Shown here piece after piece: positions 6,222-30,892 of a DNA stretch of 64,000 bases. The position numbers were made by a program, and so were the translations under genes. The notes below the pieces were generated by a model. That model did no database searches and had not been told where the DNA came from. It saw only the letters and a program-made list of their open reading frames with translations. How positions within the stretch are numbered: position 1 is the first letter of the stretch; each line of letters opens with the position of its first letter. The stretch is from a virus (lineage: Duplodnaviria > Heunggongvirae > Uroviricota > Caudoviricetes), in the IMG/VR virus record IMGVR_UViG_3300033994_001334, positions 1 through 64,000 of that record. One strand, 5' to 3'.

Positions 6222-6251
6222 TTTCAAAAAATTTACGTATATTTGTAGAAT

Positions 6252-6425
6252 ATGAGAAAATACGCATACTTTCTTGCATTTGTTGCTATGATTACAATGA
6301 GTGCATGTGGTTCAAACGAATCGACCACAGAAACAGGAAAAACAGATTCAACATCAGTTTCTATTGACACTACGGTAGTTCCAGTTATGGAGTCTACAGA
6401 GGTGTCAACTGATTCTGTTAACTAG
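6252..6425 (+). CDS. small lipoprotein (MRKYAYFLAFVAMITMSAC…)
   Basis: 57-aa ORF, shorter than the track cutoff. Signal peptide plus lipobox-like MSAC. A TAtaTTTG −7 box lies at 6234-6241. Confidence 0.4.
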   Translation: MRKYAYFLAFVAMITMSACGSNESTTETGKTDSTSVSIDTTVVPVMESTEVSTDSVN

Positions 6426-6513
6426 TTTAATGAGTGCTCACTACTATTAGTGGTAATGTGAGTTAAATGTATTGATTGTGACACCACAGCTCGTTTTTTT
6501 ATTAAAAATAATT

Positions 6514-6933
6514 ATGGATATGATATATACAAAAGATTTAATACTATTAAGGGGAGTACCGGGTTCAGGTAAAACAACATTAGGTGAAGTTATCCTACAT
6601 ATGCCCAACAACCAACTAAAACCATTATCCGCCGATGATTACTTTATTGATGACTCAGGAAATTATAATTTTGATGCCTCAATTTTAAAAGAAGCACACA
6701 ATGACTGTCAACAAAGATGTTCTCATCTTATGCAGAACGATGTTATGAAAATTGTAGTTTCAAATACATTTACTCAGGAGTGGGAAATGAAACCATATTA
6801 TCAAATGGCCGAAAGATATGGTTATAGAGTACATAGTGTTATTGTTGAAAACAGACATGGTGGTATAAATGAACACAATGTACCAGAAGAAAAACTTTTA
6901 CAAATGAAAAACCGTTTTGAGGTAAAATTATAA
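6514..6933 (+). CDS. pnk: polynucleotide 5'-kinase-like P-loop kinase (kinase domain only)
   Basis: GVPGSGKTT Walker A. Layout LSADDYFID…VVSNTF…YGYRV parallels the T4 Pnk kinase domain (GCPGSGKST…RDDYR…ISDTNL…YGWKV). Start re-called at MDMIYTK. Confidence 0.55.
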   Translation: MDMIYTKDLILLRGVPGSGKTTLGEVILHMPNNQLKPLSADDYFIDDSGNYNFDASILKEAHNDCQQRCSHLMQNDVMKIVVSNTFTQEWEMKPYYQMAERYGYRVHSVIVENRHGGINEHNVPEEKLLQMKNRFEVKL

Positions 6934-6934
6934 A

Positions 6935-7978
6935 ATGATTGAGAAATTAGAACAATATCACAAAGATGGTTTGTTACAGAAACAAATCCACCCAACTCTT
7001 GACTTAACTATTTGGAATTATTCCCCAAAAGTTCAATACGAAAGATTGTGGGATGATATCACTATGCAATGTCGTGGATTGGTTACTAACAGTAAAGGTG
7101 AAATTGTTGCAAGACCATTCACTAAGTTTTTTAATTATGAAGAATTAACACCTGAAGAAATACCAAATGAATATTTTGATGTCTACGAAAAAATGGATGG
7201 TTCTTTGGGTATATTATTCAATTACCAAGGAGAGTGGGTATTATCAACAAGAGGTTCATTTACATCACCACAATCAATAGTTGGTTTTGAGATACTAAAA
7301 AAATATAAGTACAAATACCTTCCATCTGATTGTACATATCTTTTTGAAATAATTTATCCAGAAAACAGAATTGTTGTTGATTATGGTTCGGAAAAAAAAT
7401 TAGTTTTACTTGCCGTAATTCAAACCAACACAGGAGAGGAATATAATATCCACAATCAAGATTATGAATCGTTAGGTTTTAAAACAGTTACTATATATAA
7501 AACTTGGGGAGAGGGATATGATATACTAAAAAAAGAGATATCGAAAGATAAAGAAGGGTATGTAATTCGTTTTAAAAATGGTTTTCGTATGAAAATAAAA
7601 GGGGATGAGTATGTCCGTTTGCATCGAATATTGACCAACATATCTAACCGAGATATATGGGAGTATTTGAAAGATGGGAAACCTTTGGACGAGATACTTG
7701 ATAAAGTACCCGATGAATTTTATGATTGGGTTAAACAAACTAAAGAAGAGTTGTTAACTCAATTTGAAACATTAGATAAAGAATATCAATGGATATTCAA
7801 AATAATAAATAGGGTTCCGGGTATTGAAAATAGAGGTGTATTTGCATCATATGCGAAAATGTATAAGCACCCAAATTTATTATTTAACATGTTAGATGGT
7901 AAAGATTATTCAGAACAAATATGGAAATTACTATACCCACCGTACTCAAAACCATTTAATAAGAATGAAGAGAATTAG
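6935..7978 (+). CDS. rnlA: RNA ligase 1 (RnlA-like), ATP-dependent
   Basis: Motif I KMDGSL, matching T4 Rnl1 K99-EDGSL. 347 aa. 1-nt spacing from the kinase gene. Confidence 0.7.
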   Translation: MIEKLEQYHKDGLLQKQIHPTLDLTIWNYSPKVQYERLWDDITMQCRGLVTNSKGEIVARPFTKFFNYEELTPEEIPNEYFDVYEKMDGSLGILFNYQGEWVLSTRGSFTSPQSIVGFEILKKYKYKYLPSDCTYLFEIIYPENRIVVDYGSEKKLVLLAVIQTNTGEEYNIHNQDYESLGFKTVTIYKTWGEGYDILKKEISKDKEGYVIRFKNGFRMKIKGDEYVRLHRILTNISNRDIWEYLKDGKPLDEILDKVPDEFYDWVKQTKEELLTQFETLDKEYQWIFKIINRVPGIENRGVFASYAKMYKHPNLLFNMLDGKDYSEQIWKLLYPPYSKPFNKNEEN

Positions 7979-7994
7979 TAAAAAAAATTACACA

Positions 7995-8411
7995 ATGAAA
8001 AAAAGAATTTATTTGGATGACGTTAGAACCCCCATTTTAAAAGATGAATGGGTGATTGTTAGGAATTATGAAGAATTTGTAGATAAGATAACCGAAATAG
8101 GGTTAGAAAATATTGAATTGATTTCATTAGACCATGACTTAGGGGATAGTGCAATGAAAGAATGGCACAAAAATGTTTATCATAACTATACATTGAACTA
8201 TGATAATATTACCGAAAAGACGGGTATGGATTGCGTAAAATGGTTAGTTGAACAATGGATGGATGGTAAATCTGTTGTTGATGTTTTTGTACACTCAGCA
8301 AATGCTGTGGGTAGTGGAAATATGATGGGGTACATTAATAATTTTAGACACATCAATCACTTACCACAAAATTGTATTAGAGTTCAAATCGAACATACTG
8401 TTGAAAAATAA
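7995..8411 (+). CDS. hypothetical protein adjacent to the RNA-repair pair (…ISLDHDLGD…)
   Basis: In-frame ATG at 7995. The longer 7896 start overlaps rnlA. Confidence 0.4.
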   Translation: MKKRIYLDDVRTPILKDEWVIVRNYEEFVDKITEIGLENIELISLDHDLGDSAMKEWHKNVYHNYTLNYDNITEKTGMDCVKWLVEQWMDGKSVVDVFVHSANAVGSGNMMGYINNFRHINHLPQNCIRVQIEHTVEK

Positions 8412-8422
8412 TCAAACAAACC

Positions 8423-29390: not shown

Positions 29391-29435
29391 GGCTGTTAAC
29401 CTCGTGGTCGTGGCGTTCGAATCCCACCCTCCCCG
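29313..29435 (+). pseudogene. second tRNA-Asn(GTT) gene split by a 50-nt insertion (29338-29387) between D-arm and anticodon arm; the insertion carries repeat copy 7; T-stem has a 1-nt insertion
   Basis: 5' half GGGGAGG-TA-GCTC-AGCGGTA-GAGC-A. 3' half TTAGG-CTGTTAA-CCTCG…GTGGcG-TTCGAAT-CCCAC-CCTCCCC-G. Confidence 0.5.
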
Positions 29436-29536
29436 CAAAGACTGTTATTCCTTTTATAGACGATATGGTAAAACATGCTTCGAGCATAGAAAGGAAAAAT
29501 TAAACAAATAAATAACAACAATTTAAAACAACAATT

Positions 29537-29989
29537 ATGGCAACAAAAGTAAAAACAACAGACGAAAAAGTAAGGGAACTATTTGATTTAGTCCAAGAAA
29601 AAAAATTAGCAATTGAAAAAGCGGAGAGACCTTGTTGGAAAACAAGTGGTAACTTTGGATATTCAGCAAATTCTGCACATGACAGAACAACTATCGCTAC
29701 GGTGACTGATGTTCGTAAGATTGTAGAAATGTATGCTTTTATTATGGACAGAAAAGATAAGTCCGAATCGGCATCTAAAGATTTAGGTGTTGAATATAAC
29801 TTTACTTGGTTAGGATTTTCGATTGACGAGTGGAAAGAAGATTTCCAAACTCGAGTAAATCAAATCTCAGTTCAAGAAAAACGCAAAGAACTTGCTGAAT
29901 TAGAATCTCGTTTGAACGCAATTATCTCACCAGAGTTAAAAGCACAAATGGAACTTGAAGCAATCGCCAAACTTTTGGATAAAAACTAA
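29537..29989 (+). CDS. hypothetical protein
   Basis: 150-aa ORF with coiled-coil C-terminus. Confidence 0.45.
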   Translation: MATKVKTTDEKVRELFDLVQEKKLAIEKAERPCWKTSGNFGYSANSAHDRTTIATVTDVRKIVEMYAFIMDRKDKSESASKDLGVEYNFTWLGFSIDEWKEDFQTRVNQISVQEKRKELAELESRLNAIISPELKAQMELEAIAKLLDKN

Positions 29990-30053
29990 AAGTTTATTTT
30001 CTTAGTTTAGTAAAACTAAGTGGTGGAATCAGACCTCTAAACCGGTCAGCCCT

Positions 30054-30091
30054 GAAGGGGGTTGGTGAAAAATCAACTCCCTTCTTTTTTT
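30054..30091 (+). terminator. GAAGGGGGTTG…CAACTCCCTTC + T7
   Basis: 11-bp stem plus T-run. Confidence 0.55.
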
Positions 30092-30117
30092 AAAAAAAAT
30101 TATATATATTTAATATT

Positions 30118-30837
30118 ATGAGAATAGTTTTAATATCAGATACACATTCATTACATGAACAAATGTTGCACAGGTTACCCAAAGGTGATGTTTTAATTCA
30201 TGCTGGTGATTGTACAAATGTAGGGAGAGAAAAAGAAGTTGGTGACTTTATTAATTGGTATCAAAATTTGGAATTTGATACCAAGATTTTTATCGCAGGA
30301 AACCATGATATATCTTTTGAAGGTAAACCGAATTGGTTAAACACCTATCTTTATGAAGAAAATTTACAACAATCTAATGTTACATATCTAAGAGATGATT
30401 CTATAACTATAGATTTTCCTGAATTTTCAAGACCAATTAAAATTTATGGTAGTCCATGGCAACCAGAATTCTACAATTGGGCATTTAATTTACCAAGAGA
30501 CGGTGAGGAACTTAAAAAGAAATGGGAACAAATTCCTGATGATACTGATATACTTATCACTCACGGACCTGCATTTGGTATGTTGGATTATGTGATGGAT
30601 AAATATGGTCAAAGAAATGTTGGGTGTGAATTATTAAAAGAACGCATTGATGTTTTAAAACCATTAATGCACGTTTTTGGACATATTCATTATTCATATG
30701 GAACAGAAAAAATTAACGATACGTTATTTGTAAACGCATCAATATGTACAGAACAATATAACCCCATCAATGAACCAATTGTGGTTGATTTAACGGAGGT
30801 TGATGGTAAATTTGTGGTAACTGTCGTTAAAGAATAA
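30118..30837 (+). CDS. calcineurin-like metallophosphoesterase
   Basis: MPP motifs DTHS, GDCTNVG, GNHD, HGP, GHIH in canonical order. Confidence 0.75.
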   Translation: MRIVLISDTHSLHEQMLHRLPKGDVLIHAGDCTNVGREKEVGDFINWYQNLEFDTKIFIAGNHDISFEGKPNWLNTYLYEENLQQSNVTYLRDDSITIDFPEFSRPIKIYGSPWQPEFYNWAFNLPRDGEELKKKWEQIPDDTDILITHGPAFGMLDYVMDKYGQRNVGCELLKERIDVLKPLMHVFGHIHYSYGTEKINDTLFVNASICTEQYNPINEPIVVDLTEVDGKFVVTVVKE

Positions 30838-30865
30838 AATAGTTGTTTAAATCGAAAATAAATAC

Positions 30866-30892
30866 TACTTTTGTAGTGTTCTTTGAAAATAT
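30866..30892 (+). promoter_or_regulatory. TActTTTG −7 box + GTGTTCTTTGAAAATAT leader directly abutting the ncRNA 5' end
   Basis: Same composite motif found at 17665, 18963-18983, 19548, 21373-21401 and 28650-28676. Confidence 0.4.

Follow-up and report, generated by a model that had tools for sequence, protein, structure and literature searches.

BoxA elements have so far been known from ribosomal RNA (rRNA) operons, lambdoid nut sites, suhB and clustered regularly interspaced short palindromic repeat (CRISPR) arrays. In rRNA operons, boxA is a single-stranded RNA signal bound by NusB and S10 (NusE), which together with NusA and NusG turn RNA polymerase into a fast, Rho-resistant elongation complex; Rho, NusB and S10 are all present in Bacteroidota. 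At the lambdoid nut sites (boxA and boxB, with the N protein), a phage boxA RNA and host Nus factors make the host polymerase termination-resistant, and the lambda boxA deviates from the rrn consensus and requires boxB and the phage N protein. The published boxA consensus, GYTCTTTAANA, is gamma-proteobacterial (PMC5725501), and NusB/NusE contact 8 nucleotides (nt) of the element, i.e., UGCUCUUU in E. coli (PMC3177189). Rho acts on untranslated RNA, and a boxA-loaded polymerase is resistant to it (PMC7665894, PMC5725501). A host-type boxA located ahead of the long, non-coding and processed CRISPR array was found to block Rho termination (Stringer et al. 2020, eLife, PMC7665894); the same paper reported boxA upstream of non-coding/CRISPR arrays in Bacteroidetes and listed AGTTCTTTGACAATCAAAAT, a variant with G at position 8, as a boxA upstream of a CRISPR array. 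Here, we analyze a recurrent element, GTTCTTTGA, found ahead of transfer RNA (tRNA), transfer-messenger RNA (tmRNA) and small-RNA genes in a 64-kb stretch of a phage genome (IMG/VR record IMGVR_UViG_3300033994_001334, positions 1 to 64,000; hereafter the window) and in ~420 kb of its relatives. We propose, with a probability of about 0.7, that this element is a host-type boxA through which the phage borrows the rRNA antitermination of its host for its own non-coding RNAs.

A preliminary description of this DNA had reported six stretches in which a −7 box of the Bacteroidota type, TAnnTTTG, is followed after 3–4 nt by a conserved element in front of RNA genes, and had taken the composite for a dedicated, possibly phage-specific, promoter class or a processing signal. 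All six stretches are present as described (Table 1), and a motif search of the window showed that the element is non-random, with six exact matches to GTTCTTTGA (17666, 18975, 19551, 28662, 29075 and 30878) on the plus strand and none on the minus strand, versus 0.99 ± 0.86 expected for both strands. The variant GGTCTTTGA at 21385, which has GG where the others have GT, is a seventh copy. All seven copies are in the sense orientation and confined to the RNA-gene region at 17.6–30.9 kb. The copy at 29075–29083, which lies inside a small-RNA array, had been missed. The composite TAnnTTTG-N4-GKTCTTTGA has four matches versus 0.02 expected; looser searches allowing 1–2 mismatches were not significant by themselves in the window, and the extra matches to a degenerate pattern are scattered inside open reading frames (ORFs) at chance level. 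A −7 box accompanies only four copies (boxes at 18963, 21373, 28650 and 30866), so that the composite holds for four of the six stretches first described. The copies at 17666, 19551 and 29075 have no promoter, the first two following the 3′ end of a tRNA-like element and of a tRNA, respectively. Nor is the element found exclusively before RNA genes, as had been claimed: the copy at 19551, conserved in the related loci L002 and L013, is followed by an ORF of 101 amino acids (aa) at 19585–19890 and then by tRNA-Glu, the next tRNA being 376 nt away. Where a tRNA does follow directly, the distance from the start of the motif to the tRNA 5′ end is 21–28 nt in the window.

The identity of the element is indicated by the rRNA operons of the host phylum. 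An exact scan for GTTCTTTGACATRTTGG over one genome per species returned at least 120 stretches, and among the matches listed, about 90% are labelled Bacteroidota, many of them on contigs of ~5 kb that are typical of collapsed rRNA operons. Among the 122 matches listed, 75 lie either 270–880 nt after the 16S 3′ marker or 55–226 nt before the 23S 5′ marker. In these hosts, the 17-mer GTTCTTTGACATATTGG sits in the 16S–23S spacer, often 7–30 nt after the spacer tRNA-Ala and about 45–220 nt before 23S, and Rfam returned the order 16S, tRNA, tRNA, motif, 23S in all six loci tested (e.g., in L059, small-subunit rRNA at 251–1771, tRNAs at 1917–1990 and 2002–2075, motif at 2096–2112 and large-subunit rRNA at 2163–5038). 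The 16S leaders of the same operons, which were not selected by the scan, carry G(T/A)TCTTTGAAAG.TTGG at 90–190 nt before 16S; GTTCTTTGA with at most one mismatch occurs in 28 of 43 such leaders versus 8 of 43 in the antisense control. The phage copies likewise come in two forms, a leader form, GTTCTTTGAAA(A)TAT, and a spacer form, GTTCTTTGACATATTGG, and both match host rRNA-operon copies: those beginning with GTTCTTTGAAA are found 90–190 nt upstream of 16S in the host operons, one host 16S leader, TAGTTCTTTGAAAATATTGAA, holds the phage leader form GTTCTTTGAAAATAT exactly, and the 17-mer of the phage copy at 17666 is identical to the host spacer copies. One copy in the leader and another in the spacer behind the spacer tRNAs is the classic placement of boxA, suggesting that the phage element is the boxA of the host phylum in both of its forms. 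The suggestion that the element is phage-specific is thus contradicted, with the same 17-mer in the Bacteroidota 16S–23S spacer and a variant in the 16S leader.

The sequence itself is also that of a boxA. GTTCTTTGA(A/C)A matches the gamma-proteobacterial GYTCTTTAANA at 10 of 11 positions, and TGTTCTTTGA(A/C)A is similar to TGCTCTTTAACAA, the rrn boxA of E. coli. At the 8 nt that NusB/NusE contact, the phage reads UGUUCUUU and E. coli UGCUCUUU; also present are C4 and T6, whose mutation abolishes the function of the suhB boxA. The agreement with the consensus, contacted nucleotides included, extends over the phage copies except for the GGTC of 21385 and the 3′ half of 18975. A full-text literature search for GTTCTTTGA returned only primer noise. 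Taken together, position and similarity suggest that the rRNA element of Bacteroidota functions as a boxA.

For the four copies that follow a −7 box, the promoter half of the composite appears to be conventional. The boxes are intergenic and stand before a gene. The sigma-A pattern is TAnnTTTG with a TTG about 19–21 nt upstream; a TTG lies exactly 20 nt upstream of the −7 box at three of the four composites (TTG-N20 has six matches versus 2.36 expected), and 18963 is the one whose box is not preceded by a −33 TTG at the canonical distance. In all four, 4 nt separate the −7 box from the first G of boxA, a gap previously given as 3–4 nt. In Flavobacterium (F. psychrophilum), the sigma-A box TAnnTTTG occupies −12 to −5 (PMC9723704), and Bacteroides transcripts prefer a purine as their first base (PMC7366714). 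With the box at −12 to −5 and a 4-nt gap, the predicted +1 is the first G of boxA in all four copies, and the element would occupy +1 to +17 and thus be transcribed. The four composites are therefore best regarded as probable ordinary host sigma-A promoters whose transcripts are predicted to begin with boxA, so that the fixed spacing can be explained without a new promoter class. Among −7 boxes outside ORFs of at least 100 aa, the element follows four of five before RNA genes versus none of five where an ORF of at least 50 aa comes next (Fisher p = 0.048). The remaining "RNA" box, at 28622, is simply the −33 region of the promoter at 28650. The −7 boxes before protein genes noted earlier do exist, at 6238, 21165, 24448 and 26481, i.e., 2–5 nt from the coordinates first given. 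The box at 6238 (TATATTTG, plus strand; stretch 6238–6254) ends 6 nt before the ATG at 6252; if it occupies −12 to −5, the mRNA would have essentially no leader.

Conservation was examined in 25 related IMG/VR loci, which were found via the 691-aa ORF at 26524–28599 (50–99% protein identity; contigs up to 310 kb). When unique orthologous leaders are grouped by the downstream gene, GTTCTTT(G/A)A is present in nine of ten leaders of tmRNA, nine of nine of tRNA-Leu and four of five of tRNA-Phe, and in nine of the ten unique tmRNA orthologues it begins 4–5 nt after the −7 box. Pairwise identity is 0.87–1.0 over boxA positions 1–11 versus 0.33–0.53 in the flanks, and in the tRNA-Leu leaders it is 0.96 in boxA versus 0.39–0.52 in the flanks. 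As positions 1–9 served as the alignment anchor, positions 10–17 are the unbiased part, over which identity is 0.81–1.0 in the tRNA leaders. The gap from the −7 box to boxA is nearly always 4 nt in the relatives, the exceptions being L021, with 5 nt, and a single case of 7 nt. The constant part, however, is boxA, since the −7 box is often missing while boxA is kept. In L004–L013, the array boxA has no −7 box and comes a few bases behind the stop codon that ends the 691-aa ORF upstream, i.e., at the point where translated RNA gives way to untranslated RNA. The internal array copy at 29075 is kept at the same place in L001, L002, L003, L010, L011, L023 and others.

The association with tRNA genes extends to other viruses. 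The 17-mer was found in at least 120 stretches of other IMG/VR contigs, representing 97 unique contexts among the matches listed, none of which is an rRNA context. A tRNA on the same strand lies within 80 nt in 36 of these 97 contexts, 33 of them at 22–30 nt from the motif start, versus 3% for random positions in the same loci and no antisense cases. In cellular genomes, only one of the 122 listed matches precedes a tRNA (L035), on a 780-bp contig of an Algoriphagus metagenome-assembled genome that reads tRNA-Arg(TCT), 10 nt, boxA, tRNA-Leu(TAA) at 24 nt after the motif start, and tRNA-Pro; this tRNA content resembles that of the phage tRNA cluster, and the contig is probably a phage fragment binned into that genome. 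The E. coli-type 14-mer GCTCTTTAACAATT is tRNA-adjacent in 3 of 118 viral contexts, a control that is crude because the pattern is shorter. The element is thus a signal of rRNA operons in cellular genomes and of tRNA arrays in Bacteroidota phages. Literature searches did not turn up any account of boxA ahead of tRNA or tmRNA genes in phages. Among the matches listed, two recurrent non-rRNA contexts were also seen in Bacteroidales genomes (L065, L113, L121, L126; L043, L070, L088, L094, L105, L112, L125): one has a conserved hairpin (gaaatc...gatttcaga) before the 17-mer, a boxB-like arrangement, and in the other the 17-mer is followed by TTTACACG. These sites may be further cellular targets of boxA.

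The borrowed rRNA antitermination machinery would most likely serve the full transcription of the phage non-coding RNAs. The copies occupy two types of position. In the first, boxA would form the very 5′ end of host sigma-A transcripts of tRNA-Met, tRNA-Leu, the small-RNA array and tmRNA; in the second, it would be internal: behind tRNAs, within the array and, in relatives, immediately past a stop codon. From either position, boxA RNA predicted to bind NusB/S10 could protect the host polymerase on long untranslated phage RNA loci from premature, mainly Rho-dependent, termination, and the polymerase may also speed up, as it does on rRNA. Repeated copies could re-load the factors once tRNA processing has cut the upstream RNA away.

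Several observations weigh against this proposal. The binding of NusB/S10 to the Bacteroidota rRNA element itself is deduced from position and similarity, and the transcription start sites of the phage are predicted from the position of the sigma-A box. A start on G means that the preceding U, position 1 of the 8 contacted nucleotides, would be missing from the four promoter-proximal copies. The copy at 18975 has a degenerate 3′ half and that at 21385 reads GG rather than GT, and in one relative (L012) the tmRNA promoter lacks the element, which is therefore dispensable there. tRNAs, being short and structured, do not make obvious Rho targets; the case for antitermination is thus clearest only for the array of ~760 nt and the tmRNA, which has ~600 nt with its intron. 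Nor would an antitermination model lead one to expect the motif to lie so tightly, at 22–30 nt, before tRNA 5′ ends. Finally, neither a boxB-like hairpin nor a phage Nus-like or N-like protein was found, the latter among the ~40 ORFs scanned.

That tight spacing would suit a signal read by a host or phage ribonuclease or maturation factor, which would trim 5′ leaders or split polycistronic precursors. In addition to the distances (22–30 nt in 33 of the 36 viral cases listed, 21–28 nt in the window), copies lie between adjacent RNA genes and at the junction of mRNA and array, and the host element sits in a spacer that is processed. RNase P, however, needs no leader sequence. Moreover, the host distance to 23S varies over ~45–220 nt and the second copy lies 90–190 nt before 16S, unlike a determinant of a cleavage site, the match to boxA is 10 of 11, and there is no complementary partner for a processing stem. 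Pairing of leader and trailer was considered and rejected, as the reverse complement is absent from the window; without a complementary copy downstream, the element cannot form such a helix. A processing signal, which fits less well than boxA antitermination, is accordingly considered unlikely. We regard it as improbable, too, that the copies are functionless relics that came with tRNA genes captured from host rRNA spacers. The relative L017 does carry tRNA-Ala(TGC), 7 nt and the 17-mer, with the same tRNA and gap as the host spacers L055 and L120, and the copy at 17666 lies downstream of tRNA-Ala(TGC) in the window, with the tRNA-like element between them. Yet the element is also found before genes that do not belong to the spacer, namely tmRNA, the small-RNA array, tRNA-Leu, tRNA-Phe and tRNA-Met; it keeps a fixed 4-nt distance at four independent promoters, sits at the predicted +1 of tmRNA and array, and never departs from the sense strand; and in relatives whose 691-aa protein is 73–99% identical, its conservation far exceeds that of its flanks.

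It is quite unlikely that the copies mainly act as decoys which titrate NusB/S10 off host rRNA operons and thereby shut off the host. With at least seven copies in 13 kb on RNAs that are probably abundant, and with a sequence identical to host sites, such titration may be an added effect; however, a decoy could sit anywhere, whereas placement at the head of non-coding units and at coding-to-non-coding boundaries suits a cis-acting antiterminator. Least credible of all, and largely refuted, is the dedicated, possibly phage-specific, promoter class proposed at the outset, in which the element would be a DNA site for a phage sigma factor, activator or RNA polymerase. The element does recur before RNA genes, some relatives lack an upstream −7 box, and the motif contains TTGACA, with the site at 19556 scoring 11 of 12 as a sigma-70-type promoter. 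Against this, the identical sequence occurs inside host rRNA operons between tRNA-Ala and 23S, which contradicts a phage-specific promoter, as does the geometry, three copies are promoterless, relatives drop the −7 box and keep the element, and the element falls at the predicted +1 to +17. TTGACA as a sigma-70 −35 was tried and rejected because it would put the −10 inside the tRNA or tmRNA body, and sigma-70-like matches in the region (51 versus 58.8 expected in shuffles) do not exceed chance; Bacteroidota sigma-A does not use −35/−10 (PMC7366714). Because it occurs inside host rRNA spacers, the motif was also rejected as a variant of the −7 box and as the −33 element of a promoter further downstream. 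The scan of ORFs in the window revealed no gene for an RNA polymerase or a sigma factor. Of the preliminary description, then, the observation is partly confirmed and the interpretation partly supported: what stands is a leader-type signal tied to stable-RNA loci and fused to a Bacteroidota-type promoter at four places.

Table 1. Positions of the boxA copies, RNA genes and other features in the window
Feature	Position	Strand	Remarks
ClpB-like double-AAA ATPase	4063–6075	+	
T4 Rnl1-type RNA ligase (tRNA repair)	6935–7978	+	
Terminator-like hairpins	17470–17502, 21319–21347, 30054–30084, 31490–31518		
tRNA cluster	17510–23505	+	25 genes with small ORFs between; ARAGORN, Rfam; boxA copies 17666, 18975, 19551, 21385
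BoxA TGTTCTTTGACATATTGG (spacer type)	17665–17682	+	No promoter; first G (17666) 25 nt before tRNA-Phe (17691)
−7 box and boxA TATATTTGaagtGTTCTTTGA	18963–18983	+	Stretch as first described
−7 box TATATTTG, 4-nt gap, boxA GTTCTTTGATT	18963–18970; 18975–18985	+	BoxA start 21 nt before second tRNA-Met(CAT) (18996)
BoxA stretch attGTTCTTTGACAAAT	19548–19564	+	Stretch as first described
Internal boxA TGTTCTTTGACAAAT	19550–19564	+	9 nt after tRNA-Ser(TGA); no promoter
−7 box and boxA TATCTTTGtaacGGTCTTTGACATATTGG	21373–21401	+	Stretch as first described
−33 TTG, −7 box TATCTTTG, 4-nt gap, boxA GGTCTTTGACATATTGG	21350; 21373–21380; 21385–21401	+	BoxA start 28 nt before tRNA-Leu(TAA) (21413)
RNase H-like protein	23465–23992	+	
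SmpB gene	23992–24417		
−7 box and boxA TATCTTTGtaatGTTCTTTGAAAATAT	28650–28676	+	Stretch as first described
−33 TTG, −7 box TATCTTTG, 4-nt gap, boxA GTTCTTTGAAAATAT (leader type)	28627; 28650–28657; 28662–28676	+	Directly before small-RNA array, first unit at 28680
Non-coding small-RNA array	28677–29440	+	BoxA 28662 and 29075; ends in tRNA-shaped gene 29313–29436
Internal boxA GTTCTTTGATA	29075–29085	+	Within array, between two small-RNA units; GTTCTTTGA match 29075–29083
−7 box and boxA TACTTTTGtagtGTTCTTTGAAAATAT	30866–30892	+	Stretch as first described; ends one base before tmRNA 5′ G (30893)
−33 TTG, −7 box TACTTTTG, 4-nt gap, boxA GTTCTTTGAAAATAT	30843; 30866–30873; 30878–30892	+	Whole predicted 15-nt tmRNA leader
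tmRNA gene	30893–31490	+	From alignment to intron-less orthologues; boxA leader upstream
Group I intron match	31268–31482		Rfam RF00028, 65.8 bits
Predicted unit			tRNA-Ala, tRNA-like element, boxA 17666, tRNA-Phe and onward
Predicted unit			Promoter and boxA 18975, tRNA-Met, tRNA-Thr, tRNA-Asp, tRNA-Ser, boxA 19551, ORF, tRNA-Glu and onward
Predicted unit			Promoter and boxA 21385, tRNA-Leu onward to tRNA-Ser(GCT)
Predicted unit			Promoter and boxA 28662, array with internal boxA 29075
Predicted unit			Promoter and boxA 30878, tmRNA

The transcription units of Table 1, which we infer from the sequence, are bracketed by the terminator-like hairpins. The promoter of boxA 21385 is directly downstream of one of them (21319–21347). 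The same layout occurs twice on the plus strand, at 17329–17509 and 21165–21372, with a sigma-A promoter, a short ORF (29 and 33 codons), a strong terminator-like hairpin (17470–17502 and 21319–21347) and then tRNA genes; tRNA-Ala at 17510 begins 8 nt after the terminator and has no promoter of its own. This layout suggests control by read-through or attenuation. The boxA stretch at 17665–17682 lies 7 nt after a near-threshold tRNA-like element (17588–17658, plus strand, 27.4 bits) that ends in CCACCA, and the non-coding stretch between tRNAs at 21583–21878 (plus strand) holds a series of T-arm-like hairpins, e.g., GTCAGGTTCGAAACTGAC, ACGGTTCGAGTCCGT and ATGGTTCGAATCCAT; both may represent degenerate tRNAs or minihelices resembling tRNAs. 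At the end of the cluster, an 85-aa ORF (23203–23460, plus strand) overlaps the 5′ part of tRNA-Ser(GCT) at 23417–23505, making the ORF call, or its 3′ end, doubtful. An amber-suppressor tRNA with the anticodon CUA (labelled tRNA-Pyl(cta) by ARAGORN) is found in L001, L010, L011, L013 and L018–L020, e.g., ~2.2–2.8 kb upstream of the array boxA, and was not found in the window.

The array, which contains no plus-strand ORF of at least 50 aa, is built on a core of GGCTAT-N8-TTACTTCT, in which N8 is hypervariable or swapped for a structured insert of 37–133 nt. Its units are closed by a helix, NNNGG/CCNNN, with a perfect partner in 47 of 61 unique units versus 9.0 ± 2.7 in a permutation control, and in the long first unit, 20 of 36 predicted pairs show compensatory changes across 11 orthologues. 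A reading of the units as short peptides (GY...YF*) was rejected, since the frame is lost with spacer lengths of 7, 9 and 10 and there is no conservation of the "TAA". The units, which are non-coding tandem structured small RNAs, have no Rfam match, and the array may be more novel than the boxA finding. The terminal tRNA-shaped gene has good acceptor, D and T arms, and a 33–56-nt interruption in its anticodon region holds one GGCTAT-N8-TTACTTCT unit; in the intron mode of ARAGORN, its anticodon differs by relative (Ser, Tyr, Gln, Trp).

A group I intron (31278–31469) interrupts the T-loop of the tmRNA, whose end is followed by the hairpin at 31490–31518; several relatives lack the intron. The tmRNA is identified by alignment to these intron-less orthologues, which ARAGORN calls as tmRNA and which encode an identical tag, GNVYNNMEVAGLLATSKVAA*. 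ARAGORN made no call on the tmRNA of the window, even with the intron removed; a chimera test showed that the spliced 3′ half is accepted and that the 5′ heuristics of the program fail. Together with the SmpB gene, the tmRNA makes a complete trans-translation pair. The RNA ligase, ClpB-like ATPase and RNase H-like protein are all encoded near the RNA-gene region, and the Rnl1-type ligase hints at defence against anticodon nucleases.

Among the proteins of the window (31.9% G+C) is one whose type-IX-secretion sorting domain is a marker of Bacteroidota, and we treat the window as belonging to a huge phage of this phylum. The 64 kb include no capsid or terminase gene, and a PHROGs search of its ORFs gave almost no matches; with these so few, its viral nature is judged from IMG/VR relatives and gene content. 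A megablast search with 17300–31700 against 50,697 GenBank phage records gave tRNA-sized matches only and no relatives. The published freshwater bS21 huge phages are similar in size, in GC and in the number of tRNAs; their supplement did not confirm a link.

If the element is a boxA, it would explain how a giant phage dependent on host RNA polymerase obtains complete transcripts of 25 tRNAs, an intron-containing tmRNA and an array of ~760 nt, and phage-encoded stable RNAs would join the boxA-carrying loci. As the 17-mer is specific to the rRNA operons of the phylum, it may serve as a host-phylum signature for uncultured phage contigs, and a boxA in a phage intergenic region would flag an unannotated non-coding RNA locus, as it did for the array here. 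A bolder and rather doubtful extension is that a host rRNA-type boxA before single tRNA or small-RNA genes is a general, undescribed strategy of Bacteroidota phages, in which the polymerase is re-armed after each co-transcriptional RNase P/Z cut and the abundant leaders sequester NusB/S10, coupling phage RNA expression to the shut-off of host ribosome synthesis. If so, the fixed gap of 5–13 nt from the 17-mer to the tRNA 5′ end would reflect a coupling of Nus-complex loading and tRNA maturation.

Compared with the described systems, the phage copies are closest to the boxA of rRNA operons, with which they share the core (GTTCTTTGAMA vs. GYTCTTTAANA), the sense orientation, and the position behind a promoter or tRNA and ahead of genes for untranslated structured RNA. 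Unlike in rRNA operons, they precede tRNA, tmRNA and small-RNA genes, number at least seven in 13 kb, and in four cases lie at the predicted +1 rather than tens of nt into a leader; apart from a conserved TATTGG extension, no partners of the boxB or boxC type were recognised. With lambdoid nut sites they share the phage setting and would share the use of host Nus factors against termination, whereas their boxA is of the host consensus and serves RNA genes rather than delayed-early mRNAs, no conserved hairpin stands beside any copy in the aligned leaders, and no N-like or Nus-like domain occurs in the scanned ORFs of this portion of the genome. The non-rRNA boxA in the 5′ untranslated region of suhB lies within 50 nt of the start codon (Baniulyte et al. 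2017, PMC5725501), and the phage copy at 19551 is similarly 34 nt before the ATG at 19585; while the suhB boxA represses its gene, the phage shows no sign of repression, and most of its copies precede RNA genes. Finally, the phage small-RNA array, with one boxA at its head and another inside, would be a direct analogue of the CRISPR arrays headed by boxA, the differences being that it is not a CRISPR array and that its genome is viral.

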